Below the pieces are notes generated by a model. That model did not search any database and was not told the origin of the DNA. It saw only the letters and a program-made list of their open reading frames with translations. Shown here one piece after another: positions 458-34,215 of a DNA stretch of 34,246 nucleotides; within the stretch, counting starts at the first letter, position 1, and the number at the start of each line of letters is the position of its first letter. The DNA comes from Kipferlia bialata. Its lineage: Eukaryota. The position numbers were made by a program, and so were the translations under genes. Location of the stretch: positions 1 to 34,246 of the forward strand of contig BDIP01000067.1 of the NCBI GenBank assembly GCA_003568945.1, read 5' to 3'.

Positions 458-2400
458 TTATATACATGTATGTATATACATACATCTCATCCTTAGTTTC
501 CATGCCTCTGACGACAACTGGTCTGTCAGGGGATTCCCCCAGCCCCACAACATAGGTACTCTCTCTCTCCTTCTCTCTCTCTCTCTCCCTCTTTGCAAAA
601 GATAATATCTATCTTTCAATCTATATCCTCATGTAACTCACTACAGCCATGCCCCCACCCCACTGCCTCTCTCTCTCCCTGCCCCCTTCTCTCTGTCTCT
701 CCCTATAACCAATATAGCATATAGTAGTGGACGGCGGTGCCTACAACTAGTCTCTCTCTCTCTCTCTTCTATATATACTCTCTCTCTTCTAACTTCAGGT
801 GAACCCACCGCCATCTCCACCGTTGGGGGTGCCTACTACTCTCTCTCTCTCTCTGTCTCCCTCTCTACCCCCTTATATCAGGTGAACCCACCGCCATCTC
901 CACCTATGGGGGTGCCTACTACTCTCCCTCTTCCTCTCTCTCTCTCTCTCTTCCATATGTACTCTCTGTCTTCTAACTTCAGGTGAACCCACGGCCATCT
1001 CCACACATGGGGGTGCCTACCTAGTCAGGCACTGCTGTGACAACCACTGTGACATAGTGGACATGGTGCTGCAGAGTGACTCCCCAGACCAGGTATTAGT
1101 ATTGTATTATGTAAATGTTTCCACAGTATATATTTATGTTATACAATATATATACATAAATACTTTGCATACTATAACTATACATTACTAACCACAGCTC
1201 GCTGTCTGTCTCAAGGACGCCTCTGGCAGAGAGTGGTGGTCCAGCAACGATGGTCAGAACTGGCACATCAACAAGTTCACACAGGTATACTCTCTCTCTC
1301 TCTCTCTCTACGCCCTCAATTCACCCTTAGACTGGCTGGTCTGCTAAGCTCTCTCTCTGTCTCTCTCTCTCTCTCTCTACACCCTTAACTCACCCTGAGA
1401 CTGGCTGGTCTCCCAAGAGAGGCCTCTGCTTCCCCTCCTTCCACCGCAATCAGGCCTCTCTCTCCACACTAGTGGTGTGCAACCACACAGGTATTATAAT
1501 ATACATGTGTATACGTTTATATAGTGATTGACGGAAACGTACATATACACATGTATATTTATCAGAGCAGCCCTCCCTCTCCACACTAGTGGTGTTAAAC
1601 CACACGGGTACTCTCTCTCTCTGTTTCCCAAGAGTACTGCTATTCAGAATGTATACCTCCCTCTCCACTCTTGTAACTATACATACTTACACCTCATCTC
1701 ATCCACAGGTGGCGCTGCTGTGTCTCTACAGTGTACAAGGCACATATGCGTCTTTTACTCTTTTCTATTACGCATTCTATTCCTTCATATACTTACTTAA
1801 CCCTTAGGTGGTGCCTCTGTGTCCCTGGTGTACAAGGCATACACGAATGTACACCATATATCCATAATTCTACTTAAGTAGTGTTTCTGTTATTCCTCAC
1901 CTTATCCTAATCCAGGTGGCGCCTCTGTGTCCCTGGTGTACAAGGCATACAGACCTGGGTGAGTACTGGATATATACTACATACTATATATATTTGTATG
2001 TATACAAGTAGCTGACCCCAGGTCAGAGACCACCCTGACCCACCCCACCCCTGAGTGCCCAGTCCCACAGGGGTGGCACAAGGTATATATTATAGTGTAT
2101 ATATATATATTTGTATATACTACTATATATAATAGTATATACTGATACCTGAGTGCCCAATCCCACAGGGGTGGCACAAGGTATATGCCTCACAAATATA
2201 GTATATATATATATACATATGTATCAGTATCATTGTTACTATATATATATATATACAAGCCTCTGAGTGCCCGGTCCCGCAAGGGTGGCACACGGTATAT
2301 AGAGTCTAATGTACAGTATATTCAGTGGCAAGTATATATCACCGTCCTCTGTTATCTTACCCTTCTCTACCCCCAGGCCGACCTTGTCAAGAGTAACATA

Positions 2401-4947: not shown

Positions 4948-5085
4948 TCAGATGAGGTGCTGTGTGGGCATGAGCTCCATGTTGTCTAGGATGTCCTGCA
5001 CGGAGTATGCGGTGTTGGGTGTGGACTGGTAGGGTGCAAACGAGGTGCCCCCAATGTACTCATCATCCTGGGAGACATACCCACC

Positions 5086-5116
<31 letters not shown>

Positions 5117-8100
5117 TCTGAGGGTGGGTACTGCTGAGTAGCTGGTGAGTGCGGCACATGGACATCTCTGTCGATACCCTGTGAGTCATAGACCATGTCC
5201 TCTCCAGGTGGCACAGGGGGCCTATCTCTAGATGGTCTAGATGGTCTCTCCTCGTAACAGTCCTCGTCGTCTGATATGATGCAGAAGTTGTCCATCTCGG
5301 TATCAATGCCCATCTCTCTCTCTCCCACTCTCTCTCCACCGTTGGGTGAACGCTCATGCCTCTGTCTCTTGCCTGTTGTTGGTATAAGAATTGAAATATG
5401 TACTATTCACTATATGTATAGTAATAGCTATTAATACTAGTAGGCATATATATATATATATGCATACATACCTGTTGCTGGTATGTATGGGCCGTGCTTG
5501 GCCACGGACAGGGCAGGGAGAGGGTCGTCGAGGCGGGACTGGCGTTAGAGAGAGAGTGACATATGTATATGTATATATATATGTATACATATTTCGTATA
5601 TATGAGTAATACAGGGCAGGGAGAGGGTCGTCGAGGCTGGCCTAGGGTGAGGGGTATTTTATAAGGTAAAGAATACCCTTTAGGCATTATGTACAGATAC
5701 TACATACATAAGCCAAGCTAGATCCAGTATACATATACATGTACTCTATAGTATATATATATATACTCTATACCTGGCTAGCTGCACCGACAGCGTCCTG
5801 TCTGGTGGGTCCCAGCTCTGAGGTGGTCTCGGGGCTGAAGGGCAGGGGGGACTCGGCAATTCCCCTGGTGTGAGTGTGGAGTATATAGTATATGTATATA
5901 TGTATATATATGGAAGGCCTATAGAGTGACTGGAGGGCAGGGGGGACTCGGCAATGCCCCTAGTATATTAGAATACACTAGTATATAGAGAGAGACATAT
6001 ATATGAAATTGTACACAGTATGGGACACATTGTAGATGATGAAGGGCAAGGGGGGACTCGGCAATGCCCCTGGTATGAGTGTAAGTATATATACATATAG
6101 AGACTCTACGTATATATATATATACATGTATAAACAAATGTAATGGGTACCTACTAGATTATTCTCTGGATGATGCGGCAAGAGATGCCATCTCTCTCTC
6201 CCTGACCCTGTCTCATATATATATGTATACGCATGTACATACACATATATACGTATATGTACTACATATATACTACGTGCCTGCTAGAGTATTCCCTTGA
6301 TGCAGCCCGGGATGCGGTCTCTCTCTCCCTTGCCCTCTCTGCCTTAGTAGGGAAGGCAGAGGGTCTAGGGACAGGGTATCTGGGCATTAGAATCAGACAT
6401 ATGTATATTAGTACACACCACATATCAACAATGCCCTGACTTTAGGAAGGCAGAGGGCCTAAGGACAGGGTGTCTTCAGGATGTCAAGAGGCATATCTGC
6501 AATATATTCCAATCCTACCTCTTGCTAGCTGGGTGCACGGGTGACATGGCCATGGTCTCATACATAAATATTATATATACATATATATATATATGCATAT
6601 CCACATATATATACACACTCCACCTCATTATATATATACTGTATATTGATATAGATACCTCTTTGAAGCTGGGTGCACGGGTGACATGGCCATGGTCTCA
6701 CACATAAATGTATACATATAANNNNNNNNNNNNNNNNNNNNNNNNNNNNNNNNNNNNNNNNNNNNNNNNNNNNNNNNNNNNNNNNNNNNNNNNNNNNNNN
6801 NNNNNNNNNNNNNNNNNNNNNNNNNNNNNNNNNNNNNNNNNNNNNNNNNNNNATACCGATCCTACCTCTTGCTAGCTGGGTGCACGGGTGACATGGCCAT
6901 GGTCTCATCCAGGTGGGACACATTGTCATTGTTCATGGCTATGGGTAAAATGTTATATACATATAGGTATATATATATATATATAGTGTGTGTGAGAGAG
7001 AGAGAGAGAAAGGGAGAGAGAGAGAGAGATGGTCTCATCAAGGTGGGACACATTGTCATTGTTCATGACTAAAGGAAAGTGAATATGATGATATATAATT
7101 ATATCTGGTGAGCGAGAGAGCGAGATAGAGTGACAGACAGAGCACAATACTATTCACAGCGAACGATAAGATGAGAGATATTATGTATCTATATATGTGG
7201 GTTATCTCTGATAGCTACAGATGTATCGAATGAGACATCGGTCAGGTAGGGTTCAGTACGTACCGTTGAGCCTTGCTGTGAGCTCGGCGTACTCTTGCTG
7301 GGGTGAGAGCCGTTTGATATATATATATATGTACATATACTCATGAACACATATATCATGTTACTTATTACCTTAGCAGCGTGTCTGATTGCCTCGTGTA
7401 TACAGTTATCCGTAAATACACTGCCAGTATACACATAGATCTCTATCTATACATTCATTACCTTCGCAGCGTGTCTGATTGCCTCGTGTATGCTGTTGTC
7501 TGTGTATATATTGTTTATACTTCTATATCTATACCTACATCAATGCACTAAATACCTTAGCAGCGTGTCTGATTGCCTCGTGTATGCTGTTGTCTGTGAT
7601 GTACACCCTCAGGATGTACGAGGAGTGCGTCACGGGCTTCACGGCCTGGTATCAATGCATATATATGTAGAACTACAATATACATGTGTATTCAATGAAT
7701 GATATATGAATACTATTGTGATGTACGAGGAGTGCGTCACGGCCTGGTATTAGAATCACTGTCACGGAGATATTATTGACAACACTAATTACATGGCCAG
7801 ATCACAAATACATATTGGCAAAATCTATAGACTGTAGAATGAATCATTACCCACCCTAAACCCATCGGAGGTTATGAACTCCAGCTCTATGTCCATTCCG
7901 ACCAGTGGCTTCTTGAAGAATGGGATGGCAGTCATAGGGTCTCCGTCCTTACCCTTGCCACCGTATCCTGATATTGGGGTACATATGTGTGTTAAGCGCA
8001 TATATCATATATCATATACACAATTAATGTATATTAGAACACATTATATATGAATGGGATGGCAGTCATGGGGTCTCCGTCTTTTCCCTTTCCTCCGTAT

Positions 8101-8367
8101 CCTGTGTAAATGATTTACTTCACACTAATAATTATGTCAATGAATACCGGTTCAATTAAAAAATGACCAATACTGTATATATACATATATCAGAATAGAG
8201 TAACAATGGGAATAGAGACAATAGTGAATATGGTACCCATAGTGCTCTTCGACACCCTGACATATAATACATACAAACATGATATTCATATATATTCTGA
8301 ATAGTGAATACATTCATATATATTCTGAATATTGAATACATACATATACATACATACATATACATAC

Positions 8368-8402
<35 letters not shown>

Positions 8403-9970
8403 CACGCCAGTACCTATTGTGCTCTTCTGCACCCTCACCAGCTCTGGGGAGACATTGGCACGGCGGCAGATTCTGGAGAGTTAGTACTATATGTAAACGT
8501 ACATTAGAACTCTATAGTACATATATACAGCTATTCCTAACTCATATGTATACCTGTCATTGAACTGCTTTGTTCCAAAGGTGTCAAACAGGTATAACTA
8601 ATCAGATAGTTGTATATGTGTATACTATTACCCAACTACCCTACATATGTAAATATATAAATATATATATATGTGTGTGTGTGTGTGTATATACCTGTCC
8701 CTGAACTGCTTTGTCTCAAAGATGTCAAACAGGCTGACGTCATTCATCATGTCCTTGGCAAACCTAGGAGTCAACGATAGAGTCAAAGAATCATTAGTGA
8801 ATCAATGTACAAACAATTATGTACCAAATACTGAATCACCTCCTTGGTCAGCCTGATCATCAACACTGTAACATACATATATAGATAATAATAGTTACTA
8901 GGGCCTAATAGTCACTGATACGATGAATACATACCTGATGCCAAATGCCAGCTTGTATGTGTTCCGCGTGTCGACACGCTGCAGGATGGCCTGATGGTAG
9001 GAATACATTTATAGGTATATATACTGAATACATATTGAATATAATTCAGATTAGAACCAATATGTATATACTATATGTTGCAGGATGGCCTGGGGGGTAA
9101 GGGTATATATACACACACGACATAATACAAATTGATAGTGTATATCCACATATGTATACACACATACATATATACATATAGGATATATATATATACATAT
9201 ATATATATGTATACATACATATATATATATATATATATAGGATAGCTGCAGGATGGCCTGGGGTAAGATGCAAACATGATTCATACACAATACACATATA
9301 CTGTACACATGCAGAACTTATATACCTTAGCCTCGTCAATCTTTTTATTCTCTAATTTTCTATTTTGGGTTGTGTGTCTAGGTACACTTTTACTACAGTA
9401 CAGCAGTCCATATATACATTGCATCTGAGACGTATATCTCCAGATATATATACCTTAGCCTCGTCCATCTTTGGGTTCTGTGTCAGGCCATTGCCTCCAA
9501 ACCCACCGGCTGGGTACATCCTGATGGCTGGGGGTGAGGAGATACATACATATCCATCATATATATGAGAGAGAGTGCGTGAGAGAGAGAGAGATAGGGA
9601 GACACAGACGCCAGCTGGATATATGCTGATGGCTGGGGGTGAGATGTATAAATATATACATATATATGAAGAGAGAGAGAGACAGAAAGCAAAAGAAGTG
9701 ATATTCACAACACGTACTGTCCAGGATGCCGTCGTTGAGCTTGAGGAACAGGTCCAGGTCATGGCAGGAGTCAGTCAGGCGGAAGGTGTCTGGGATTAGA
9801 GGTCAAATATGGAAATGGACCATGTTCAATAATATATAGGAATACAAGAACAATCAATTATACATATACTATATGCATACTCACCCGATGCCTGCACGAG
9901 GGCGTCTGTCACCATCAGCTCCACAGCAGAGGAGGTCTTGTGGGAGTACACACGGCTGAAGAGACTAGAC

Positions 9971-10017
<47 letters not shown>

Positions 10018-10805
10018 CTTGTGGGAGTAGTAGGCTATTGAATAGTGGAGACACGTGAGGTTGAGAAGGAGATGTCACCTGTATCTGCAGCCGAATATCT
10101 CGTTGATGGCATGTTGGGTCTTGACCTGGAAGGCCCACTTGTCACCAACGAACCTGGGTGATTAGAGACATGTCACACGCAATTCAAACAATGCCACATA
10201 CATGCAAACACATAATGACTATTGGTATACATAGTCACAGACAATTGGCGCCATACCTGCTGGCCTGTAGTATGTATGCCGTGTCTGGCCTCTGCATACT
10301 GGGGCCTACATTGACAGAGTCTCTGGGGGTAAGGTATACAATAGTATACATACAAATATATACACTACCATTGACAGAGTCCCTGGGGGTGAGGGGTGTA
10401 TTAGTGAATACATATACATATGTTTATTTCGCTATTAGTCTCAATGCTGGGGCCAGAGTCTCTGAGGGTTATGAATACTATAGTGTATCAAGTCCAGTAG
10501 AATCTTCAACACTTCTATATGTATATATAGATCTATATCTCATACCTCTCCAGATAGTCGAGCTTGTCCACGTCCAGCCCGCACTGACTGTTGGACACAA
10601 TGTCATAGAGCCAGCCTCTTTCACCGGTCTAGAAGTCAGGGAGATTTAATCGAAGATATATACCCTATATATGCATATATAGTATATATATGTGTGTGTA
10701 TATATACATATAGTATATATAACTGACTGTTGGACACAATGTCATAGAGCCAGCCCCTCTCACCGGTCTAAGGGTCAGAGAGACACCACTTGATATATAT
10801 CTATG

Positions 10806-10840
<35 letters not shown>

Positions 10841-11697
10841 TATATATGGTGTTCTGACTGTTGGACACAATGTCATAGAGCCAGCCCCTCTCGCCGGTCT
10901 AAAGTAAGTACAGGGTAACTTGTATGTATATGTATATGTATGATTGTATATGTGATATATAGTGTTCTGACTGTTGGACACAATGTCATAGAGCCAGCCC
11001 CTCTCGCCAGTCTGAAATTAGTATGATATATATAGTATATATAGTATTCTGACTGTTGGACACAATGTCTAAAGTCAGGCAGTATCTATAAGAGAGAAAG
11101 GGTGTACCATATACACATGTATGTATACTTTTTATACCTTGCGCCCCTCTTTGCAGTCACAGATGGCAGTATATATATATATATATATATACTATATAAT
11201 AGCTTTGTGCGTGTGAGTGTATGTATACCCTACCTTGCGCCCCTCTATGCAGTCACAGATTGCACCGGAATTGCATTTGTAATAAAATATTTATACTGGT
11301 ATATATATACATACATAGATTATACCATGTAACAATACCTTGCGCCCCTCTATGCAGTCACAGATGGCAGTGACCTCACAGTCCTCGAGGTCTAGGGTGA
11401 GATTCATATATAGAAGGTGTATATTGATTAGATAGAGAGGAGTTAGACATCAATAAGTAGGATATTACGAAGGTATATACTCTTATAATAGATAGAGAGA
11501 GAGAGAGGGGACCTCACAGTCCTCAAGGTCTAGGGTGAGGGGTATATGAATTAGAATCATCCATGCTTATAGGTAGGAAAGTGTGAATACGCACCATCAT
11601 TCTCCTGTGCTATTCTGTGCACCAGTTCCACAGACATGGCCTCGTGCTCCTTCCTGATGCCCATGGCACGCAGGAACCTGGAATAAGGGGGTAGAGG

Positions 11698-11742
<45 letters not shown>

Positions 11743-13939
11743 GAGAGATGCCCATGGCCCTCAGGAACCTAAGGATTAGACCATACGGAATATATATGAA
11801 TTAGAATAAGAATGAGGGGTAGGAAGAGAAATCTATAAGTGTGACACTTCTGATGCCCATGGCTCTCAGGAACCTAAGAGTGAGGAGGTAGGGAGAGAGA
11901 GAGAGAGAGGGAGATAGAGAGAGAAAGAGTGTATAATACAGAATATATACTCACCCACTGTCCCATGCGTGACTGAATGGTCCGTGGCCCAGGTCATGGC
12001 ACAGGGCAGCAAGGGTGACTAGAGTAAGGTTAATACTAACAAAAATACTTGGGTATATATAGACAGAGATGGGGGGGGGGGTACTAGGTCATGGCAGAGA
12101 GCAGCAAGGGCGACTGTTATTAGTATCACATATATAATACATGAACACACACACACATATATATATACATGTTAGTGTATATATATAGTTCAGGTCACAG
12201 GGCAGCAAGGGTGACTGTAATTAGAGAGTAGATGTATATTCATATACATATATTCATATACATATATACATATACAGAGAGAGAGAGAGAAGGATATATG
12301 GGTAGAGGTAGAGGGCAGCAAGGGTGACTGGGGTGAGAATAATACTACTTAGGGGTTCCCAGAGTGTACGAAAGTATTTTCATATACCTATCTTCCTCTC
12401 TCTGTGTGTGAGCCTCAGGCCTGGCTGGGATGCACTGACCTTGGACAGGAGCTGGCCTAGAGTAAAATATATATACATACATGTCTATATTAACCTAGTT
12501 CTATATGTTCTCATACCTGCCAGGTGCATGGTGCCCAGACTGTGTCACATATATAGTACAATCTATAAACAATATGATATATACATATATATACAGCATA
12601 TCTACACAATACCTGCCAGGTGCATGGTGCCCAGACTGTGTCAAATATGTCATAATATACACTAAATACACACAACACTGACTTCCAACATATGATATTC
12701 ATATATAAAGATAATATATATATATATTATTACACTATATTTTATTAAACTATATTATATATCTGTACAGTACCTGCCAGGTGCATGGTGCCCAGACTGT
12801 GCTCAAACCTGGCAATTAGAGGGTGAACACATGGAGAGAGCTGTATACTAAGCAATGTACAAAAGTGCATGGTGTGGTCATTAAGAATTTGTGTGTAGTG
12901 TCTTAATACCTATCCACCATACCTAGTGTGTGTGGCCCCTGGGTACACGTAGTGAGCAGTCCCCAGCTGTCTAAGACCCCTGGAGTAAATAGTAGTATTA
13001 TACACAGACATATATACATATATAGATATATATGTATTCATGTATATATAGAGAGACAGTACCAAGCTGCCTCAGTCTCAGACCCTTGGAGTAAATAATT
13101 ATTGTTGTATACATACATACAGTAAGTATATATATGGTCAATATACACAATACTGAACCATATACCTCAGCCTCTGCACTGCCTGTGTGTTGAGCACATC
13201 CACTGCATAGCCTGGGACCTCGATGACCTAGAGTAAAAGGGGTATATATATTACCTAATATATATATATATATATATATACTATATACACTAAACATAGG
13301 TATAGACATCCACTGCATAGCCTGGGACCGATCAATGACCTGGCAGTGAGGGAGGGAAATGATTGACACCAAATATAATACATATTATAGATACCTTGTG
13401 GATGGGGTCTGTGATGGACACATCGAAGTACACCTTATATGTATATATATATATGTGTATATATATATATTCATTTATTCATTCTATACTGATTCTGATA
13501 TCATTGTGGTATCCATACATACTACTATAGCTAATATATATACCTTGTGGATGGGGTCTGTGATGGACACGTCGAAGTTGTACGCACAGTGGTACCTGGG
13601 GTAAGGGTCATGTTGAGAGAGAGAGAGGGAGAGAAATAGAGAGACAACATATATAGAAACATAGGAGAACGGGGGGGGGGGTAAACACTAGATATACGTC
13701 AGATAGGGAGTACGAGAGTATGATGGTGGGAGCCATAGTACCGAGGGATGAGATAGAGAGAATGGGGGACGAATGGGAGCGGGGGGGGGGGGAGGGCACA
13801 TATGAATCCTTAAGCAGAATAATACCGGTATATGGTATATTGACTGAGGCACCCTAAAGATAGAGACAGTGATAGAGAGAGAGAGAGATCTACACCTGCT
13901 CGACAGGCTGTCTCCTGCTATATCGGCCTCTCCTGGCAT
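4948..13939 (-). CDS. SAMHD1: SAMHD1-like HD-domain dNTP triphosphohydrolase (no SAM domain; low-complexity C-terminal tail), about 25 exons
   Basis: Spliced translation starts [15 protein letters not shown] (13939-13896), then [17 protein letters not shown] (13595-13544), [51 protein letters not shown] (12808-12774), [15 protein letters not shown] (12018-11955), [32 protein letters not shown] (10628-10546 onward), [20 protein letters not shown] and [13 protein letters not shown]. These match the SAMHD1 signatures [39 protein letters not shown] and VYQHK. The exact 3' end is less certain. Confidence 0.93.
6722..6852. other. Assembly gap (131 N)
   Basis: Run of N inside an echo array in an intron of the SAMHD1-like gene. 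Confidence 0.99.
10584..11070 (-). repeat. Acceptor-echo array of the [15 protein letters not shown] exon x5
   Basis: Plus-strand ctgactgttggacacaatgtc occurs at 10584 (live exon), 10723, 10854, 10967 and 11049 (internally deleted). Confidence 0.97.
12515..12808 (-). repeat. Donor-echo array of the [11 protein letters not shown] exon x3
   Basis: acctgccaggtgcatggtgcccagactgtg occurs at about 12515, 12611 and 12772 (live). Confidence 0.95.
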
Positions 13940-15878: not shown

Positions 15879-17026
15879 GGAGACTGGCACCGGCAGCAGC
15901 AGAGAAGGAGGTATATATATACACACACACACACACAATTAGTAAATATATATATATATCTCTCTCTCTTGTTCTCTTCCTATGCACACTTCTTATCCCA
16001 AGGTTGCTACTGCACTGGAGAGAGAGACTCTCCTCATTGCCAAGGTAAGAGGTGTCTGTATACAGTATGTATCGTCTGAAAAGATATGTAATTTACTCTG
16101 TTGTAGTACACTCTCACGTTAGGTTGAGTCCCTGGAGTCTCTCTGCCAGCAGGTAGAGGTGGAGAGAGAGACTGAGAGAGCTCAGTGGGAGACAGAGAAG
16201 GGAGAGTTGGAGAGGGAGAGAGAGACTCTGACAGAGAAGATCAAGTGGGAGGGAATAGGTATAGCGCACACTCCTATATATATATATGTATATGCTTCAT
16301 ATATAGTCTTCTCTCCCTTCTCACTCCAATGGGTGACAGTACCCGCTCATATTTGGAGTATTTATATATATACTAGTAGGTATCTCTCACCCCCAGCCCA
16401 CCAGGCCATTGAGAGTACTATCTCTCTCTCCCTATTATGTTCAAGTATAAATACATATTGAAATGTATCTCACCCTCAGCCCACCAGGCCATTGAGAGAC
16501 AGTACGACTCCACATATTCTGCACTCACCGAGGTCAGGGAGCAGGTAAGCTATACATACTGTATATACACAAAACACTAAACAGGTGGTATTGTATGTAT
16601 ATCTGTATATCAATCGATGTATATATATGGGAGGCAGAGAGGGCAGCAACTGTCAAATATTTCTATACATATATACAATATGTGAAATTGCTGCATCTTA
16701 CCTTAGCTCGAGACCGAGAGGGCTGCTTGGGAGGCCGAGAGAGCATCAGCAGCTGAGAGGGAGGCTGAGAGGGTGAGGGAGAGAGAGAGGGAGAGAGAGG
16801 CCGAGCACATGGAGGTGGCAGACCTACTCGCCATCAAGGAGCAGGTATATAGTTTATGTATACATATATGTACACAATATATACACTGTATATAAATATG
16901 ACTATTGTATATACAAATGTACTACTTATACTATATTGGATATGGAGGTGGCTGACCTACTCGCCATCAAGGAGCAGGTACACTACTCACTTATATACAT
17001 ATATACATATATACATATATACATAT

Positions 17027-17065
<39 letters not shown>

Positions 17066-17167
17066 TACACATATATAGTATATAGTATCACATGGAGGTG
17101 GCTGACCTACTGACCATCAAGGAGCAGGTACATTCCACACACGTACATATACATGATACGTATGTAA

Positions 17168-17200
<33 letters not shown>

Positions 17201-18119
17201 AATACATATGTAGGATGTTTCGTGTAAGTTGGAGGTGGCCATCAATGAGCAGGTATAGTGTTTGTATATATACTATATATACAAAATATATACACTATAT
17301 ATTAGTATATGACTAGTGTATGTACAAATGTACTGATTATACTATATTGGATATGGATGTGGCTGACATACTAACCACCAAGGAGTAGGTACACTTCACA
17401 ATAGTATATGTCTATGCTCATATTCAACTAATAGTAGGTCCTATATGTATACACTTGTATTTCTCTTAATGTCAGGTCCAGGCCACCCTATACCAGGCCG
17501 AGTCCGACAGGGCAGTCTCTCTCTCTCTCTATATATATATACGTATATATACAGACATATACAGACATATAGATACAGACACTAATTGTTAGGTACAGGC
17601 CACCCTTGATCAGGCTGAGTCAGAAGGGGCAGGGTATCTAGATCTATCTCTCCCTCGCTCTCTCTCTCTCTATCTATATAGATATAGACATAGTATGTAC
17701 TAATAGCAGGTCCAGGCCACCCTAGACGAGGCCGAGTCTGTCTCTTCCTATCTCTCTCTCTCTATATATATAAGTTCTATTGTCTGTGGTTTGCCTTACA
17801 ATAGGTCCAGGCCACCCTCTCCCGGGCTAACTTTGACACGGCAGTCTCTCTCTCTCTCTCTCTCCCTATGTCTCTACATACATTTATATATATCTAACTA
17901 CATACACTAATACTAGGTCCAGGCCACCCTCGACCAGGCTGAGTCCGACAGGGCAGAGTCTCTCTCTCTCTCTCTCTCCCCCTATATATAGGAGTTCTAT
18001 TGTATATAGTATGCCTTATCATAGGTCCAGGCCACCCTTGATCAGGCCGAGTCCGACAGGGCAGAGTGGGCACAGACAGAGGCAGCACTGAGATGTCAGG
18101 TATGTATATGTATATATAG

Positions 18120-21100: not shown

Positions 21101-22714
21101 CTCCCTTAATTGTCTCTATCTATATATATATTTATGCTTATATTCTGCCTCATCTCCAGGTTGCTTGTGTTATACATTGAATAGTGTTTGTTTACATAAG
21201 TGTGTTATATCCTATATGTCACACTCACCTCCAGGTTGCTGAGTGCACCAGGGTCACTGAGTCCCTGGCATCTCTCAACACACAGTCACAGGTATAGTAT
21301 AGGATATATATATATATAGTATATAGTATAGGTATATATATATACTACTTATTATAGATGCATGTATACTCACAGTCACAGGTTGGTAGAGTTAGTGTCA
21401 ATGTGTATTTTATATACATATGTATGTATAAATACTCAACACACAGTCATATGTGGAGTATATACTTGTATTACTATACATACACTATATTACTACACAT
21501 AGTAATTTACTTAGCAATTACTGGGTGTATATTGTATATGTTAGGAGTTACCTCCTCTGACCCCAGGATGAGAAGACTGATATGTATGTGTGTATTTGTG
21601 GTATAATGGGCACTCACTAGGCTGAGAAGGAAGAGTGGAAGAGAGTTCACTATATGTGTATAAGTATACATATGTATACTGATATCCCAGGCTGAGAAGG
21701 AGGAGTGGGAGAGAGAAAGGGCAGTGCGTGAGAAGCGGCTAGCACAGCTAGAGGCAGAGAGGGAGAGGGAGAAGAGAGAGAGAGAGGCCAAGGAAGAGAA
21801 GAAGGCTCAAAGACCCACTCCAACAGACTATGCCAGGGTGGGTTGATATATATATAGTATATGTAGTATATATATATATATACTCATATACAAAGAGAGA
21901 GAGAGAGAGACCCACTGCCACAGACTATGCCAGGGTGGGTTGATATATATATAATATATGTAGTATCTATATTAATATATATACATACATAGAGATAGAG
22001 AGAGCCACTCACACAGACTATGCCAGGTTGGGTATATAGTGATATACACATGTATATGTATATATATTAATAGCAATATCTAGTCACTCATGTATACCCA
22101 CCTGACCCCCAGGCCGAGCAGGACAGGCATATGCATATATCTATACCTATATATATATATAGCCTTCTTGTATAATACCTATATATATATATACATATAC
22201 CTCAATATACATCTGACCCCCAGGCCGAGCAGGACAGACAGTCACGGGCCAGGGAGGAGTGGGCTCAGAAGGTGTGTAGTAGTACAAATATACATTAGTT
22301 TGTATATTAATACTTATGTATATTCATTCTAACTTTGAGGCCGCTGCTCTGAAGACAGTCAGGGATGATGTGAGTTGTGGTATATATTGTGTATTAATGT
22401 ATATTTATATAAATATTCGCTTATTCCAGGCCGCTGCCCTTAAGACAGCCATGGGGTATAATACTGTATATATGTATATAATACTGTATATACTATATAC
22501 TATATACTTATTCCCTAACCTCCAGGCCGCTGCCCTTAAGACAGCCCGGGAGGAGAGAGAGAGACTGGCAAGGGAGGAGGCAGAGCGTGTGGAGAGGGAG
22601 AGAGAGAGGAGAGACGCTGCTGAGAGAGAGAGACTGGAGAGAGAGAGCATCCCAACTAGTGGGAGTGGTGGAAGGGTGAAGGATCTCATTAGGAACTTCT
22701 CTCAGAGTGAGTAG
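14297..22714 (+). CDS. Large multi-exon Glu/Arg-rich (ERE) coiled-coil hypothetical protein
   Basis: An acidic N-terminal exon (MPSQADIAIEAEREGET...) is followed by many GT-AG exons with heptad-like E/R-rich translation, e.g. 16707-16844, 18025-18099 and about 18958-19372 (LVERASLVAEMEQESEAHALALKGAEGEREALNSVL...). The last exon ends GRVKDLIRNFSQSE-TAG at 22714. The start codon and some internal exon choices are uncertain. Confidence 0.8.
16809..17390 (+). repeat. Donor-echo array (ATGGAGGTGGC.GACCTACT..CCATCAAGGAGCAG|GTA) x5
   Basis: The live copy ends at 16844, with echoes at 16942, 17092, about 17230 (deleted form) and about 17352 (most diverged). Confidence 0.95.
17474..18099 (+). repeat. 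Acceptor-echo array (AG|GT.CAGGCCACCCT) x6
   Basis: Copies start at 17476, 17593, 17710, 17805, 17917 and 18025 (live exon 18025-18099). The period is about 95-117 nt. Confidence 0.97.
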
Positions 22715-22964
22715 AGAGGGAAAGAGAGAGAGAGAGAGAACTTATCAGGAACACTGTTGTTATTCGGTCTGGCACAATGAATGGAGAAATAGATTTTGTA
22801 GTACTTACGGATACTTACTGGTGCCAATGAGACAGTTTGTATCTATCATAGTTAGGTAGCTCAGCTATGCTCTAGGGAAGACCTCTGGAGAGACGGGCAC
22901 ACAGTCTAAACGAACTCCGATTTTCCGACTCACTTCGCAGTATTAATTAATAGACAAATCTGAA

Positions 22965-23170
22965 ATGGAAGAACAAATCTTTCTTCATATCCGTCCTTGT
23001 ATCTCCTCCGGAAGCTACACTGACCAATACGCCACCCCATGTCCCCCATATGCCCATGTGTGTGTACCTTGTACAGACACAATGGGGCAGGCAGTCTCCC
23101 TGACGATACGGCTGGCAAGGTACACACATAAGACATGTATCACCCCCCCCCCCCCCCCCTCCCTCTCCCC

Positions 23171-23203
<33 letters not shown>

Positions 23204-23613
23204 ATGTTAGGTCCGGGATGCCCTGAGACAGGAGGGCAGGGTCAGAGAGCTCATCTCCCTTGGGTACTCAGGTATGCAGTGTGGTATGCAGTGTGGTATG
23301 CAGTGTAGCATAGCTGTTGTTGTCTGCCTCCCATCGTGCCCCTGTCTCACCCCCAGACGCCGAGGCCCGTCGCATGTCCAGCCAGCAGCAGACCCAGCAG
23401 GGACCAGGGTCAGTCAGGGAGACCACGGGGGAGCGCATACAGCGCAGGATAGGTATAGATGCGGCACTCCACTCTGTCTGTCTGCCCTCTTCCTATACAT
23501 CTCCACTCCTATCCATATCTACCCCTCCTCTCTGAGCCTCACCCCCAGCCACCGTCGACTCTGAGATTCAGTCCAGGGGGTCCAGCCGGAAGGGAAACGC
23601 ACTCCCATGGTAG
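22965..23613 (+). CDS. Small multi-exon hypothetical protein
   Basis: GT-AG exons at about 23077-23119, 23211-23271, 23357-23452 and 23549-23613 join in frame as HNGAGSLPDDTAGKVRDALRQEGRVRELISLGYSDAEARRMSSQQQ...SSRKGNALPW*. VRELISLGYSDAEARR resembles the first helices of UBA-like modules. The 5' end is unresolved; ATG 22965 is only a candidate. Confidence 0.55.
23143..23201. repeat. Intronic poly-C tract
   Basis: About 59 nt of nearly pure C between a GT donor (23120) and an AG acceptor (23209-23210). Confidence 0.95.
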
Positions 23614-23907
23614 AGGGGAACGGTAGTAGTTGCACTGGAGGGTCACTTGTACTGGCTCCCAGGGCCACTCATGACAAGACATTGGGTGCCGGAGACGGCC
23701 CACAATGCATTGCTTGAGTAATTGTAAATATCGGATAAATACATCTAGTTATACTAGGAACTATGTGAGTTAGGTGCATGAGAGTCTGGGATGCCCACTG
23801 CTCAGTTCATCCTGTCATTGTTGAACCTTTTTTGTTGAATTTTGAGAGAGTCACTCTGAGTGTCATTGCTGAGTGTGCATTCTTGTATAGATCTATCTAG
23901 CTCTGAG

Positions 23908-24275
23908 ATGGCCAGTGCTGGGAAAAATCGCAGGAAGCGCAGGAAGAAGGCTGCCAAGGCTGTGTGTGTCCCCCTGGCCCCTGTGTGTGAGTGGCCAGAG
24001 GAGGGGGGGGAAGACAGTGAGGCACTGCGTGAGATGGGTGCCTTCAGGCTGACAGACCTCATCCCCCCCAAGGCCATGGTATGCACAGACTCTAGAGGCT
24101 CACACTGCGTGTCAATATGGCGTGTCTTTGTCTCGTTATGACCCCGATACTGCCCTAACTCCAGAACGGAGGCTCCCACATTGTCACCCACATTGGTCAC
24201 AGCACGCTGCTGGTGCTGTGCTGGAGCACCATCTACAATGAGGTGGCTGACACGCATCTATTTCTCTCTCTCTGA

Positions 24276-24324
<49 letters not shown>

Positions 24325-26330
24325 CCTCCCATTTCCACTCCCATTCTCTAACCATTAGACCCCAGACCAACAGTGCACTGCATACATCATCGAGCCCGTG
24401 ACGGGTTCTGACAGCACCAGGGAGCTGAAACTAAAGTGCCAGCAGATTCACATGCCCATGATTGGTCCCTCTCCCTCTGTTACCATGCTGGACGGGAAGG
24501 TGAGTGTCTGCCACTCACACACTGTCCCCCGTCACTTGTGGCCTCTCCCTCTCCATGTGTCTGATACCTCAGGTGTACGTGTTTGGCGGGGACTTACAGT
24601 ACTACTACCAGAGGAGAGTGGTACGTCAAGAGTATCTACCAACATATTCCCTACCGTTGCTGTGTCTTACCCTCATGACAGATCCGCATTACTGATGCCG
24701 AGAAGGAGGGGCTGATCAAGGACGGCAAGTTCTATGGGTATGGGGGGTGTTCTCTCACACACTCGATCATGTCATATTCCTACTTCTCTCTCCCCCTCCT
24801 ACCTTAGGGACGAGAGTTTCAACACCTACAGCACTGCCTGTGTCAACGACCTCCACGTCCTGTCCCTCGATACACTTACATGGACCTCCAAGGCAGGGCT
24901 CGGTCTCTACTAGTGGTCTGTTGGTGTCTCTTGGGTATTGTTGTGAATTACTGTGGGGTACCAGATATATTTCTCCTTGCTAACCCAGGTGTACAATGAA
25001 AAGAAGCCAGATCACAGAATGAGACGCGTCATGAAGCGTAAGCCTGCACCTCGGGTAGACCCAATTGTACGTGGGGAAGATGCTTGTAGATGTTCTTCTC
25101 GCTTCTGCTGGGGTGTTGCCTAACAGCCAGGCCTATACATACAATGGACTCCTGGTCATCAACGGAGGCCAGGGGGTGTTCGACTACGAGTGAGTACAAA
25201 TGTATTGTATATATAGTAAACATTACGTACTTACGATACTGCTCATGTGTATGTATCTGCACCGCAGTCTATTTGGGTACCCTCACCTCAGTGGTACTGG
25301 GTTGAGTGGCCTGATCAGTGTGTATGACCCCGAGACAGACAAGTGGGGCGAGGGAAGCAGGTGCGTCTTAGTGATGGATTGCATTTTCTCTTTCACTACT
25401 AGGTACCTACTCGTATTGATGTGATAGTTCTCCAGAATTCATTCAAGTGGGCTGGTATGTTGTGTGTGTCTTTATATATCTATCCTCATTGCAGTACGAC
25501 GTTGCTGGAGAAGTATGGCACACACTCTGTGGGAGAGGGATACCATAAGCAGTATCTGCAGGTGTCTCCAGGTGAGTGTATATGTATCTCTCCCTCTATC
25601 TGGTTATCCTGTCATTGATGTATTGATGTGTGATGTCTCATGACCCGTAACAGACACGTCAAGCACTGGCCTTCTTTCCATATATATATACCTACCCTCA
25701 GGAGAGGGTGGATGGAAGTCCATGTTCACAGAGGCCGCAGCCAGGAGGGGCCTCACCCACCTGTGGAGGGAGTCACTGGGCGTGATACAGGTACAATCGC
25801 AACCTTGGTACCAGTGTCTCCATATATACACTACCGGTGTTCTCACCCGAGCTCCCCGGCCACCGTGACATCAAGCCCCAGGATGACCAGCTGGAACTGC
25901 AGGGTGCGGCACTGATGCTGATGGGGCATCAATCAATGATGGCATGGATCACTCAATCGCAATAGTGTTCATTATGTGCACGATACTGACCCCAGACGAC
26001 ATCGGTGGCCTCCATGACTACGGGGCCGTCCTGCCCCACAGTATAGAGGTGGCCGAGTCTGAGTCATTCATGAGTGATGCCGATGGTCCATTTGATGCCC
26101 AGTTCTGCCCATTAGGTATGATACTTCTCAGTATGCCTGGGGGTATTAATACTCTTTTGCCATCACCGCTCTCTCTGTCTCACCCAGGTGTTGAGTTCTG
26201 CCCCGGGATAGTGATGCTCTTTGCCGCGGACGGCGTTGTACATGTGTGCAGCGTCAACCCCGCCCTGTCCTACCCTGACCACACACTGCAGTGGGCAGAT
26301 CTGTGTCAGAGGGTGTCACATGAGAAGTAA
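23908..26330 (+). CDS. Kelch-like beta-propeller protein with basic N-terminus
   Basis: ATG 23908 gives MASAGKNRRKRRKKAAK (NLS-like). Short GT-AG introns separate exons with kelch-type segments SVTMLDGK|VYVFGG, VNDLHVLSLDTLTW, AYTYNGLLVINGG and ISVYDPETDKW. The last exon ends WADLCQRVSHEK-TAA at 26330. Confidence 0.75.
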
Positions 26331-26456
26331 ATCAGATGGGCTCTTATCCGCTAGAGTCTATTTGGCTGGTTTCTTTAACTGAGGGTACCGAGTTACGGTA
26401 TAGTGTATGCCAAAGTTGGCGTTTTAAGCCCGGCTCTTGAGAGTTTCACCTCACTA

Positions 26457-27011
26457 CTATACAGCAACCCTATTTGGACCCAGCCTAACCCCTCTGCCTG
26501 CCCACAGTCTCTGTCCTACATACAGACACGCCATGGGACTGCCTAGACAGGCCACCAGGCCTATCCAAATGACAGCTGTCAGGGGTCTGTCCTCGGTATA
26601 TAGTACGATAACAGAGAGACAGAGGGTGAGGACGTAGTAGTCGAGAACAGTGGTCAGGAGCCAGGAGCTGGGGTGGGAGGTGGGACATACTTAAGGAGTA
26701 TTCAACTCCGATATATAGAGACATGTGGGAGGGATTGTATACAGAGTATAGGAGTCCCGGCACACCTAGCCCACTCGGCAGATTCAGTATCAAGGGGGAA
26801 TAGGGGGTACTTGAACAGAGTCCACCCAACACGGATGGCTGAAGGGTCAGACCGACTGTGTAACGTACACCGTGGACTTTACTCCATTGTATACTCTAGG
26901 CATTGCCCCCTCACCAAATGTCACTCCCACCACAAGGAGTATGGCCAGCACCAACACAACATGTCCTATACGCCTAATGTCCTTGTCCGCACGTGTCAGA
27001 GGTCTTGACAT
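26457..27011 (-). CDS. Small membrane protein, DUF1475-like (3 exons, 111 aa)
   Basis: Exons 27011-26915, 26838-26811 and 26667-26457 join in phase as MSRPLTRADKDIRRIGHVVLVLAILLVVGVTFAIRVGWTLFNSWLLTTVLDYYVLTLCLSVIVLYTEDRPLTAVIWIGLVACLGSPMACLYVGQRLW...VAV*. It has 3-4 hydrophobic segments. The W..TT..DYY, Y.E and WI....CLGS....LY pattern recalls DUF1475. The spliced product is not visible as a whole in the ORF track. Confidence 0.75.
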
Positions 27012-27266
27012 CGGGTAATGGGAACAGAAGGTGAAAGAGAGGCCGAGCAATAGTGTGAACTGTTGAGTAAACATATGGTTAGGACTGCACCCTTAGACAT
27101 CCGAATGTCTGGCATATACAGTATATAGTATACCATGTAGCGATGTATTCGTCAGATCTAACCATGTATCTGTGAGTTCTCAGGCTCACCTCTAACCATT
27201 CTCCATAACACCAGCACCAGACATAATAGACGCAGTATATGCAGAGGGTGAGGCCCAGGTTAAGAT

Positions 27267-30200
27267 CTATTCCTCTGCGGCAGATGGTTGTGCCACATCA
27301 GCATGATCAACATCGACAGGGGGGGCTGCGTGTGAGGCCTCTGTCTCTACAGAGGGCACCCCAAAGAGACTCCTCCTCAGACACTTGGATATATCCTGGG
27401 AGGTGACAATCTCGCGGGGCCGCTCTCTCCCGCTGTCCTCACCCTTGGGCACCCACCTCCTCTGCCGCAGACCCACCATGGGACGCGACGTGTCCCACCC
27501 AGCACCCATGGAGAACTGGGCCTGGGGGTGAGGGGACACAGGGAGAGTGAGAGTAAGGCACTGTGACATGTTGTTTACCAGTACCTTGCTGAGATCAGGC
27601 TTGTCCTTGCTCCGCTTGACCCTCCTTGCATGCTTCTTCTCTCTCCTTAGAGTCCTCTCTCCCTTTACGATCTCATCCTCCTTGACTCGTGCTTGGTGGC
27701 CTCTCTTCACTCCCTTCACCCTAAGGGTCTTTGAGACCTTATCCTTCTGGGCCTTGCCTGCCCTCCCACCACCTGTGGCAGGCCTCGGCCTCACTGGGTG
27801 TGTGCTGGGTATGTCCCTTTGAGAGCGAGTCACACTCGCCGAACGACGGCTGGAGCTCTTAGGCCTACTATTAAGCAAAGCGACTAGAGTATTCATGTAT
27901 ACATAGAACGTGAGCCACCCTTTACACACCTGGGAGGCAGGGCTGATGCAGGTCTCTGCAAAGTCTTCCTCCTGCGTCTGCCCTTTGCCTTTGTCTTGAG
28001 TATAGCACGGGGCATCTTGTGTGTGGAGACCTCTCTGTCTTCCTTCCTATCAGTTAACCTCTCCATGCCACTGACGGCCCTCCTTCTGCTGACACTAACA
28101 CTCCTCGACCGTCCCCTCCCTCTAGATGCCCTTCCCCTCCCTCTAGATGCGCTGCGCCTCTTCCTGCTGATGCGTGCCCTCTCTCTCTCCCTGTCCAGCT
28201 CCTGTGCCATGTCAGTATCAAGGGTATCAGTATCAGCACCCGTGCCCCCTCGGGCGATGCTGGCAGCAACAACACGGAATATGTCACTCTCTGTCACTCT
28301 CTCCCTCTCGGAGGTCGGGTCTCTCTCACTTCTCCTCCTCTCCCTAGCTCTCCTGACCTGCTTCCTAGGTACGGGAGGTGGGGAGGCTGACACCACGACA
28401 CTCGCACTGTGTCTGTCTCGCTCTCTCTCCCTACTGCCGTCCCTGTCGATGGATACAGAGTTGGGTCTCCAGGGCGGCATGGGGAGAGGCAGGGGCTGGG
28501 GGGCTAGCCTCCTGTGCTTCTGTAGAGCACGGGCAGCCGCTCTCCTACTCTGTCTGTCTAGTTTACTGTCAGCCTTCCCCGTCACCTTTGAACCGGCGCT
28601 AGAGGGCCTACGCCTCACCCCACGAGACCGGCTGCCCCCACCGTGACCAACACTGCCCCGCCCTCCCGTCTCTCTCTCCACAGTAGGGTTGCGCCTCCTG
28701 CCCTTGGACCTAGACCTGGAGACAGACCGACGGGGGGCAACCTCCCTACCCAGAGACGTCTCTCTCTCTCCCCCCCTCTTGGTGTCCGTTCCCTTGCGTG
28801 ACGCGTGTCTCCCTACCACCGAGTCCTCTGCATGTCTAGCCTGGTTGTCGGCCTTGTCTCCCATGGTCAACTCCTCGTACAACAGGGTCCTGGAGGGTGA
28901 GGTGACAAACACATCACGGTATTGATACTGACCCTGGCTGTCTATCAACAAACGTACCTCTCAGTGGGGTCCATCCTGCCGACCGCAGACAGCACACTCG
29001 AGAGGTCGGGCAGCACTGACACTGCCGGCCGGACAGGCACAGTGTGGGATACCCCAGTCACAGCGTTGGAGGGGTGAGTGACACGGCCCGAGGCGAGGGG
29101 GGAGGCCACAGCTGCAGAAGGGCCTAGGGTCGGATATTGATAGAGACTGAAGAGTACTGTGGAAGTATCTGACACAAGAGGCTACGTATTCAATACAAAG
29201 CACGAAGACGATATCGATTCAAGCAGAAGTGTCCCCTAACCTGAGACCGAGTCGTATGTAGAGAATGCGGACCGAGGGGGGTGGGGGGATACGCCGACAG
29301 TGGGTGTGAAGGGGGTCCCTGTCTCCCGTCCCCTGCCACTACCAGCATCACCATCAGCAGGCACAGCCACACACCCACTCACCGAGTCCAGGCTCCTCCC
29401 CATGTGCATCTGCCCCCTCTGAACGGCGTCTGTCACAGCCTCTCTTCCCTTCCCTGCCACTGGCTCTGGGGCCAGGAGGGATGATGCAGACATGGGCAGC
29501 ACAGAGGCAGGGGGGACAGAGGCACCGCGGTATGCCTCGGCCGAGACACCCCCAGACCCCTCTCCGTCTGCTACAGTGGTATCACTGGGTCAGAACAGTT
29601 TTGATGCATGCATCAGTATTGTGAGATGACAACGTCTGACCACATCGGATTGCTATACATACCTGGCAACAGCTGGGGGGGGTAGGCTCTCTGTCGCTCT
29701 GAACCTGCTCTCCCCCACGATCTGCTTCTCTCTCCTCCTCTGTTGCTGTCTGGGGTGAGAGCAGTTGTGGGGCCAAGAACACACTGGCAGTGTCCTCACC
29801 AACCACACACTCACAGTCTTACCTATCCTTGCGCAGATACTGCTTCCGCCTTCTCTCAGCCAGCTCCCTCGATATCTTACCACCCACTGGGCGCACAGGG
29901 TTCTGCTATGAGGCTCATGGCTCCTAATACCTATATATACTCCATATGCCATTCTATCCCCCCACCTGGGCTGTGGCTATGGCCCGTATGGGGTCCCTGG
30001 CAAGGGCTATGCGGAACTCAAGGGCCGCTCGTCCCCTCTCTCTCCTCTCTCTCTCCTCTCCCGCCTTCTTGGTATCCTTCTCGACAGACCGGGAGTTGAA
30101 CTTACACACTCTGGAGTGGGAGAGGGTTGGAGAGAAAGACAGTGGGATAGAGTGGAGGCGTTGGTTGTTACCTCTTCTCTGATGCCAGTCTATTGCGTCT

Positions 30201-32623
30201 CTCCCTCTCCTTCACTAGGTCCAACACGGTAGGGGGGGCTTCAACTGGGAGTCAGTACACTTAAGAGTATGACACACGCACACAGATAGAAGGTCAGTAA
30301 TCAACACGGGAAGGATACTAACCAGTGAAGAGTAGGGAATGTGGAATGTGTCGGGGCATGGCCTACCCACCTGGTTCCTCCTTAGGCCTGGTAGGGGACG
30401 GCGGGGGTGGCTGCACCCCTCCCATGTCTGTGGATAGAGTGGGAGGGGCATCATCCTCCCTAGGTGTCACCATGGCCCTCCCAACCCTAGGGGGAACAGA
30501 GGCTGCCCTGCCGTCTGCATCAGTGTCAGGCTGCAGCTGCTCTAGACCGGTGTGGGTGACCCTGTAGGTAAGGGTAGGTCAGTGTAGGTAAGCACAGGTT
30601 AGCAGACGGGAACCACCACAGTCGGTAGATGTCGCACCTGATGTCTGTGAGCTCTCTGTTCCTGTAGAGTATGCCCAGCACAGGATGTCTACGGACACTG
30701 GCAGGGAGTAAGGAGGGGTCGTCAATGCCTGGGGAGTCAGGGACACTCGTAGAGGGACACATACACACCGAGACATACAACATCTACTCGCCAGATAGCC
30801 GACTTCTTCTCACCGATGTATCAGTATCAGTATCTATATTCTATCTGATACTGACTCCCTCTCACCTATGAGCCCCAGGTCGATGTCCTTCCTCTGGGCT
30901 GGGGGTGCACCCTCACTGTCTCCCTGGGGTCAGAGGTAAGGGGGGGGACAGGTAGCTGGAAATACCAGTCTCTAGAGTACACCCTCACTATGATACCTTC
31001 TTGGCCTTGTCAGTGCCAGGCACAGGGGCACTGGGCTGGGATGAGAGACACAACGGGGGATATCAGCGTCTATAGGAACACTTACGACACTATCTCTCTG
31101 CCCAATACACCCCCCCCCCCTCTGTACCTTGTCCCTCCCCCTTAGCATGCTGGGCACCGATGAGCTGCGGGCACTCCTCTTCCCAACAGAGTACTGGGGG
31201 TGAGATTGGAGAGGTGGAAGGAGTGTGTCCCTCTCTACCCTGTCAATGGTGTGCCACATACCTTGGCCAGTGGGTTGAGGGGGTTGTACGACAGGTTCAA
31301 CGTGTAGGGGGGGCCATCCGTGACGTTGTCCCTGGGGTCAGAGAATCGCTGTGTGTACCAATATCATGACACATATATACACTAATATGTATCTCTATGA
31401 CACATAGAGTGCCCCCTACCTAATTGCTCTCATTGTCTGGGGGCCCAGTCTGTTGTGGCTCAGGTCCAGCCCCCTCAGCCCATAGGGGGACATCAGCTTG
31501 TCCTGCAGAGTAGGCGAGGCATGCAGGGTCTCCTTAGGGTGAGAGAGGGAGAGAGAGAGACATGGTATGTTGAAATGGTATCAGTGGTATCATGCACCCA
31601 CCATCCAGAGGCCCTTGTGCTGTATCTGCTGCTGGACCTTGACCAGTCTGCCTGGACAGTCAGGGGGGGGGGGGCACGGCACATACGCATATACACACAG
31701 ACATGGAAGCACACACAGATGGGCCGAGTGCCACCCACCTATGCTGTCTGCCGCTGTGTCATCTACCGTATTGCCAGACAGGCACAGGTACCTCAGTCTG
31801 GGACAGTCGCAGAGCTCGTCTAAGGTGAGGAGAGCATTGCTGTACAGTCATATACTCACTAGACTCCCACAAACACTACGGGTTCATTAGAAAATTCCAC
31901 ATATCCTGTCCCACCTAGGAGGACCTTGGCTCCCTCCGAGCCCAACTGGCAGTCCTTGAGAATGAGGACAAGACCTAGGGTAAGGGGGTGCGATAGAGAT
32001 GGGCTGTACTAGCCTGGACCAATATCTCTACGCATAGAAGCCCCAGTGGCTGAGGAATGGTGAATGACCTGTCTTTGATGTGTACTCCTCTCTCTCCATC
32101 ATCTGGCGCAGACACTTGGCTATGACTCCAACCTGGGGTGGGGGGAGGCTGATGCATGTATACATTGGTGATTCTCTCTCTCTCTGTGTGTGTGTGTGTG
32201 TACCTGCTGCACACTGAGGGGTATGCCGTACAGGGCAAAGACAGAGAGCACCTTGCACCTGGGGTCAGGGGAGAAAGTAGGGTTGTACTCACGTAAAATT
32301 GCATCCACACGTGTGTAGCACACTCACTACTGAGAGAGCACCAACCCCCTGATCTCTCTCTCTATATATACATATATATACATATATATACCTGGGCAGA
32401 CACTGCTTGAGGGCGGATGTCAGCCTCCTCCCGGCCCCTGCCTCTAGTATAGGGGGCAGGTTGGTGGACGAGGGGGGTCTAGGGTGAGGGTACTCTGGAG
32501 GCTAGGGTGTATGGATCTGTGTGCAACATGTCTTACCTCCTGACAGCCTGTGAGAGCCTGGCGGCCATCTTGGCAGAGGCTGTCTTGGGTCCAGCCCGCT
32601 TGATCTGACATAAGAGTCTAATC

Positions 32624-32655
<32 letters not shown>

Positions 32656-34013: not shown

Positions 34014-34134
34014 TCAGTAAGAGAGGGGGAGAGAGAATATAGGGAGAGAGATGTCATCGGGTGTGACCATGCGAGGGGCTGCCATCCCGCCATTGCCAGG
34101 GGGTATATCAGTGTCAGACGCCCTCAAGAGAGGC
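34014..34134 (-). CDS. Probable terminal exon of a gene extending beyond the window
   Basis: An acceptor ccacctag is followed by an open frame PLLRASDTDIPPGNGGMAAPRMVTPDDISLPIFSLPLSY-TGA. Upstream on the minus strand lies intron-like (GA)n/poly-G sequence. Confidence 0.4.
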
Positions 34135-34188
34135 CTAGGTGGGACTGAGTTCTGGGCCAGATATTACAATTGAGAAAGTGTATTCATT

Positions 34189-34215
34189 CTCTCTCTCTCT
34201 CTCTCTCTCTCCCTC

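Follow-up and report, generated by a model that had tools for sequence, protein, structure and literature searches.

Splice-junction echoes in the introns of Kipferlia bialata: intact splice signals, an acceptor-side silent bias and a likely exchange with the working exon

The introns of three modelled genes on a contig of Kipferlia bialata (BDIP01000067.1, the 34,246 nucleotides of which are referred to here as the window) are populated by partial tandem copies of splice junctions, hereinafter echoes, each of which spans one splice site and the adjoining part of its exon. These echoes keep splice signals of working quality and differ from the working exon mostly by silent changes, likely because they are swapped with that exon and not because they store an ordered history of it. 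Specifically, we regard as about evenly poised the reading in which they are tandem junction copies, skipped in the sole transcript seen, that continue to recombine with the working exon. As part of this reading, a spare acceptor together with its exon start is likely to be swapped occasionally into the live position and to be screened there by selection.

Census and structure of the echoes

All counts derive from three gene models in positions 1-22714, whose frames are all open. Echoes were detected by extending the match from the splice site without gaps, with no AG, GT or branch point being required. This yielded 76 echoes, of which 46 are acceptor-side and 30 donor-side; they form 48 arrays and occur in 36 of the 57 introns. 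A gapped search recovered 10 further degraded or truncated pieces that were excluded from the counts. Relative to the exon from which they are copied, acceptor echoes are placed upstream and donor echoes downstream, with a median spacing of 102 nt, and the presence of 20-54 nt of live intron flank in some of them indicates that plain tandem duplication occurs. The features discussed individually are collected in Table 1.

Among the pairs listed by a repeat scan, no echo pairs lie beyond 22546. The segment at 22700-34246, for which no echo pairs are listed, has a higher GC content (0.50-0.60) and intron-like segments at ~24330-26330; the echo habit may differ by gene or region. A minus-strand open frame of 151 aa (23802-24257) includes a short stretch that may resemble the final part of a copia-type RNase H region, and a gene A exon peptide (1198-1284) may resemble a carbohydrate-binding module motif.

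Table 1. Coordinates of the focal array, the gene containing it and two comparison arrays
Feature	Position	Strand	Basis
Gene A comparison array; echo 2 has the live flank but silent alleles in common with echo 1 (mosaic)	751..1020	+	
SAMHD1-like HD-domain gene; 26 exons, 714 aa modelled, 29 echoes	4948..13939	-	Open gene model, HD-domain and SAMHD1 matches
Live exon 10 of the SAMHD1-like 26-exon gene	10546..10628	-	Open model, SAMHD1 matches, spliced contig with 0 differences
Acceptor echo 1, made up of branch point, AG and the first 45 nt of the exon; 2 silent differences	10723..10783	-	
Acceptor echo 2; 3 silent differences	10854..10910	-	
Acceptor echo 3; 4 silent differences	10967..11023	-	
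Acceptor echo 4; lacks 25 nt of the exon start, retains branch point and AG	11049..11080	-	
Exon 9 donor echo 2; 33 nt of exon end and GT, one amino-acid change	11134..11170	-	
Exon 9 donor echo 1; 31 nt and GT, one silent change	11231..11264	-	
Live exon 9; a 710-nt echo-filled intron separates it from exon 10, to which it is joined	11339..11391	-	Gene model and loose end of the spliced contig matching exon 9
Gene C comparison array; five acceptor echoes, 1/10 alleles nested, four gametes	17474..18099	+	

The focal gene and its splicing

The array that first drew attention belongs to a gene which an earlier note on this DNA had called SAMHD1-like. That identification holds, with SAMHD1 being the best named match for exons 4 and 10: the best PDB matches of the exon 10 peptide are an HD-domain protein (E 0.0009) and SAMHD1 (E 0.005-0.009). 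Additionally, exon 7 matches the HD domain (E 0.0014, under the curated cut-off), while Pfam recognised one of five exon peptides. On the basis of the HD motif and the SAMHD1-like catalytic segments, the gene qualifies as a predicted SAMHD1-like HD dNTPase.

Sequencing data were compared over 10030-10655 only, and missing echo letters in the RNA contigs do not prove non-use. An RNA-type contig of 2086 nt has introns of 223 nt and 103 nt removed exactly, and the same joints are absent from the DNA run. This contig connects the live exons 9-13 with live letters, rare isoforms being invisible in contigs; over 10546-10630 it carries the live codons with 0 other letters and is joined to the exon at 11339-11391 and to 10322. 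Hence, the exon designated as live in the earlier note is the one spliced in the sole transcript contig seen. Contigs of the DNA run, which drop variants, contain no alternative letters over 10030-10613. No relative was recovered from metagenome contigs, in which an exact search with 33 nt gave 0 matches.

The focal array

The exon starts at 10628, 10767, 10898 and 11011 on the minus strand, and the codons that follow them, are all as previously described. The live exon and echoes 1, 2 and 3 show 0, 2, 3 and 4 silent third-position differences respectively, which are nested by distance; all four copies encode TGER, and the 33 nt downstream of these first four codons are identical among them. 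Absent from the earlier description are a fifth, deletion-broken copy of the exon 10 start at 11049-11070 and the two exon 9 donor echoes in the exon 9/10 intron. As the copy at 11049-11070 lacks 25 nt, the array does contain a private, frame-breaking change. The proposal that the copies carry no private non-synonymous changes stands for echoes 1-3 and fails for the fifth copy, as it does elsewhere in the window, where 31 replacement alleles as against 22 silent ones are private.

On the null of a dead echo and a constrained live exon, the finding that four of the four differences are silent has a P of 0.014. For all four to fall within the first four of 14 degenerate codons, P is ~0.001. Both figures are for an array chosen as the most striking of 48. 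Since two of the four sites do no more than split the live copy from all echoes, one of the six possible orders of three echoes yields the ladder (1 in 6 by chance), and the order by itself is weak. Along the sequence, the silent switch points shift monotonically, and one distal junction is common to echoes 2-4. The live exon has the rare codon GAA where its echoes have the common GAG; codon bias is extreme throughout the three modelled genes in 1-22714 (AAG 64/AAA 0, GAG 265/GAA 9, CAG 77/CAA 3).

Silent bias: acceptor versus donor echoes

A neutral dead duplicate is expected to show a pN/pS of ~0.5 relative to its live copy, and such duplicates a value of ~1 between themselves. The observed pN/pS relative to the live exon is 0.24 (0.15-0.35, from a bootstrap over arrays in which 0 of 5000 replicates reach 0.5), which bears out the suspicion in the earlier note that the echoes are something other than dead copies evolving neutrally. 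Taking a single echo from each array gives 45 silent versus 36 replacement differences (P 0.0006-0.005), or 43 and 36 with the focal array left out (P 0.0015-0.009). The two sides differ in this respect (Fisher P=0.006): the pN/pS of acceptor echoes is 0.16 (CI 0.08-0.27), i.e., below the dead-copy null, whereas that of donor echoes, 0.40 (CI 0.26-0.60), is compatible with it. Further, when neighbouring acceptor echoes are compared with one another, 16/73 fourfold sites differ, as do 10/263 non-degenerate ones. The corresponding echo-echo pN/pS is 0.17 (P 1e-5 against 1 and 0.006 against 0.5), or 0.21 without the focal array (P 0.03 against 0.5), while the figure for donor echoes, 0.60, is compatible with neutral dead duplicates. 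The site-level P values assume independent sites and are therefore optimistic, the bootstrap being the safer figure. Together, these observations support constraint as a general property of the acceptor echoes in this window.

A biased mutation spectrum was ruled out as the origin of the silent excess, with 52 fourfold changes seen as compared to the 27.5 expected from the observed spectrum. Also ruled out were a stronger constraint on the nearest echo, the nearest and the second both standing at 0.24, and a general edge gradient of differences window-wide, including at fourfold sites. Two individual cases illustrate the kinds of change encountered. The acceptor echo of exon 19 at 8052-8101 (minus strand) has five silent and no replacement differences in 50 nt, one of the silent changes producing AAA, a codon without use in the three genes. 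The two acceptor echoes of exon 8 at 11747-11873 (minus strand) have AGG and AGA for the live CGT, two-base differences that keep the arginine.

Splice signals and flanks

The AG is intact in 45 of the 46 acceptor echoes and the GT in 29 of the 30 donor echoes. A branch-point motif is found in 43/46 acceptor echoes and 52/58 live acceptors, as against 136/689 other intronic AGs, and the median acceptor matrix score is 4.3 for echoes and 3.4 for live sites, as against -8.0 for background AGs. The flanks of 29/46 acceptor echoes and 23/30 donor echoes resemble the corresponding live flank no more closely than do the top 10% of unrelated flanks; in acceptor flanks, positions -3 and -4 are also near background and the residual identity is 0.10-0.24. 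This near-background similarity, set beside the AG and branch-point counts, depicts an exon part that is near-identical, a flank that is often saturated and signals that are intact. Indeed, the branch point is intact in 27 of the 29 acceptor echoes with unrelated-looking flanks, a retention with P <=3e-5 under neutral decay with assumed branch lengths. Splice dinucleotides were lost in 2/76 echoes versus 5.5 expected at the non-degenerate-site rate, the changed sites between echo and live copy being 48/1241 non-degenerate and 52/318 fourfold. Flank similarity shows no relation to exon-part divergence (rho -0.14, P=0.26; 63/76 echoes).

Several structural interpretations were tried and rejected. 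Echoes are not whole micro-exons with decayed donors, given that a GT near the end is present in 19/46 versus a background of 36%, nor are they frame-preserving units, the lengths and spacings being even modulo 3. Alternative or mutually exclusive exons are ruled out by the lack of a donor-like site at the ends of acceptor echoes and by the focal echo acceptors, use of which leads to a stop after 43-78 codons, and recursive-splicing ratchet points by the focal echoes beginning with AC, only some other exons beginning with GT. Some modelled junctions are unusual in their own right: at 6154-6281 (minus strand) the model requires a GC donor after exon 23, of which the diverged donor echo then has GT, and the modelled live acceptors at 1399, 2639 and 16002 are GAG or AAG and not YAG, with the echo upstream of 1400 being TAG.

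Relationship to known junction duplications

By structural definition, the echoes are mirage-type junction duplications, with whole-unit, minisatellite-like identity confined to a minority of them. The amphioxus ‘mirage’ minisatellites are known from Adh3 and the globins BflGb6 and BflGb9 (PMC3087553, PMC3902484). In the accessible parts of these accounts they are tandem duplications over an intron-exon boundary, on its 5' or 3' side, often with AG or GT and with normal splicing, and the account of them in PMC3087553 proposes unequal crossover and concerted evolution and reports copy numbers that differ between haplotypes. Likewise, the 76 echoes are anchored at a splice site, most with AG or GT, and one contig attests to normal splicing. 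However, as far as those parts of the accounts extend, mirages occupy few loci, as opposed to 36/57 introns here, and their units are 81-100% identical along their length, whereas here the exon parts are ~94% identical and the flanks often look unrelated. Further, ‘many, but not all’ mirages retain splice signals, as compared to intact dinucleotides in 74/76 echoes, and the same parts report no test for mirages comparable to the silent bias measured here. Hence, it is the density of the echoes and the signature of selection that are new relative to the known mirages.

The Rogers model of intron gain by tandem duplication of an AGGT-containing exon segment (PMC3265369, as set out in the part available) likewise involves a local tandem duplication copying splice signals. 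However, the duplicate in that model sits within an exon and creates an intron, whereas the echoes span an existing splice site and end without a partner site. Sequence exchange between a working copy and a neighbour that is not expressed is also a feature of gene-pseudogene conversion pairs, for example CYP21A2/CYP21A1P and SMN1/SMN2; these are whole-gene duplicates of many kilobases, unlike the 100-nt half-exon units repeated here in most introns. A search of the open-licence literature found no report of junction echoes at this density or with silent, coding-type constraint. As context and not as evidence, the accessible portions of the respective sources describe diploidy (PMC5874029) and a reduced spliceosome (PMC6679479) in Kipferlia bialata and a lack of NHEJ in metamonads (PMC8516963).

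Alternative explanations

The earlier note had interpreted the array as a chronological tape of past exon alleles. With such a tape, each event would retire the live acceptor beside the exon, and the new live copy would gain a burst of changes of which only the silent ones survive. The perfect nesting of the focal array, with its changes clustered on the acceptor side, agrees with such a tape, as do the alleles common to all echoes (eight silent ones and one that is half of an Arg-to-Arg change) and a weak rise of divergence with distance (correlation with echo rank 0.24, P=0.04; in adjacent pairs the farther copy is more diverged in 12, less in five and equal in 11). However, across the 21 multi-echo arrays the order-informative alleles are nested in 30/58 cases versus a shuffled mean of 24.2 (P=0.11), in 28/56 without the focal array (P=0.17) and in 13/26 among silent alleles alone (P=0.24). 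Full nesting was found in three of the 15 arrays with at least two informative alleles, and the five-echo array of gene C (17476-18067) has all four gametes at two silent sites, with 1/10 of its alleles nested. As copy order does not beat the shuffle, the tape is not a rule in this window. Moreover, neutral snapshots cannot yield an echo-echo pN/pS below 0.5, contrary to the above values with and without the focal array, and there is no general silent excess near acceptors. Of the two outcomes that the earlier note had said would speak against it, a copy order unrelated to topology is largely what is seen, whereas the echo dN/dS is far from 1. On balance the tape is decidedly unlikely. Ordinary dead duplication, in which protection extends to the live exon alone and the focal array represents the lucky tail, draws on the decay that is evident in the echoes (the stop codon near 17388, deletions and the 31 private amino-acid changes), on the fit of donor echoes to the null and on a detection threshold that favours intact echoes, with the 10 degraded pieces falling outside the counts. 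Against it stand the pN/pS of 0.24 and its bootstrap, the fourfold excess and the branch points that are intact amid diverged flanks; it is quite unlikely as an explanation and, for the acceptor echoes of this window, already rejected. The array containing that stop codon, at 16809-17395, has four donor echoes of one exon in which decay increases outward, the outermost having 89 nt of its unit in common with the first echo.

A direct role in present-day splicing, e.g., as stepping stones or recruitment sites by which a short-intron spliceosome crosses longer introns, is unlikely, if less readily dismissed. It would accommodate echo acceptors that score as high as live ones and the persistence of branch points inside saturated flanks. 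It would also accommodate the growth of introns by ~106 nt per echo, with 18 of the 21 introns without a detected echo being shorter than 200 nt, but this length relation is expected from duplication alone. Further, the sole spliced contig employs outer sites only, no partner site above background is present at echo ends, and a splice to an echo of exon 10, which begins with AC, would regenerate no donor. A splicing role also does not by itself demand amino-acid conservation; the silent bias would have to arise separately, from conversion and allelic polymorphism. The assembly itself might have strung divergent alleles or paralogues in tandem, and a 131-base N gap does lie within one echo-bearing intron. 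Read depth also hints that the focal array was assembled below its full copy number: contig depth in the DNA run is 398 for unique sequence, 2283 for the shared core and 1642 for the echo 3 junction, the core thus being at ~5.7x unique for four assembled copies, although depth is no copy number. However, read-derived contigs contain an echo-specific junction and the echo 2 flank (as loose ends), and the DNA run, which may be the source sample, contains 0.90 of the sampled words. Further, the echoes end mid-exon, with up to five having distinct flanks, which two alleles cannot give. An artefact is accordingly very improbable.

Proposed exchange between echoes and the working exon

The reading preferred here, of junction copies in recombinational contact with the working exon, could be realized in three steps. 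A duplication over one splice site would survive because the partner site is missing. Short conversion tracts would then keep the exon-derived part uniform, the flanks meanwhile diverging. Finally, an echo and the live exon would undergo unequal crossover or annealing, which would make the branch point, AG and first codons of the echo live, whereby damaged echoes would be purged and silent variants of other alleles mixed in. In these terms, two silent versions, one live-type and the other echo-3-type, might be present in the focal ladder, which would be a staircase formed by the ends of tracts between them, with echoes 1 and 2 being live-type at the acceptor side and echo-3-type beyond. The monotonic switch points and the distal junction common to echoes 2-4 are consistent with such a staircase.

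Swapping is favoured by the observation that non-degenerate sites and splice dinucleotides point to an equally brief period outside selection, with fourfold sites and flanks being far more diverged. Recombination among copies is further suggested by the decoupling of flank and exon divergence, by the four gametes of gene C, and by the mosaic in gene A, where the live exon and echo 2 have a flank score of 24/30 with 4/38 exon differences, while echoes 1 and 2 have a flank score of 3 with 2/38 exon differences. The gene C pair could instead stem from a recurrent C/T change. Some observations run against swapping: the DNA run contains no alternative letters over the segment given above, although contigs drop variants; and frequent exchange should homogenise the flanks, yet the 29/46 acceptor flanks noted above look unrelated, and the model hence needs long-lived flank lineages. 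It also predicts no asymmetry between acceptors and donors, yet one is observed, and fourfold sites show no window-wide edge gradient, nor are the nearest echoes more constrained. The data themselves show the junction-spanning duplicates with intact signals, the acceptor-side silent bias beyond the dead-copy null, the mosaics and the use of outer sites in RNA; the swap and its three steps are proposed to account for them.

Implications

Splice-site turnover and the growth or sliding of introns are normally invisible because the intermediates are erased. Here several former or spare junctions lie side by side in the majority of the introns examined, and hence a single genome suffices to measure the turnover of splice sites, the lengths of conversion tracts and the indirect selection acting on DNA that is not expressed. 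The junctions also raise the question of how the spliceosome chooses the outermost among up to six equally good acceptors spaced ~100 nt apart. More tentatively, and with somewhat less than an even chance of being correct, most introns might keep a reserve of spare acceptors and exon starts that is under selection for both splice signals and protein coding, be it via swapping by homology-driven repair or via use by the spliceosome. If so, the introns would largely be archives of former working exon ends, the spares of which are unseen in the mRNA.
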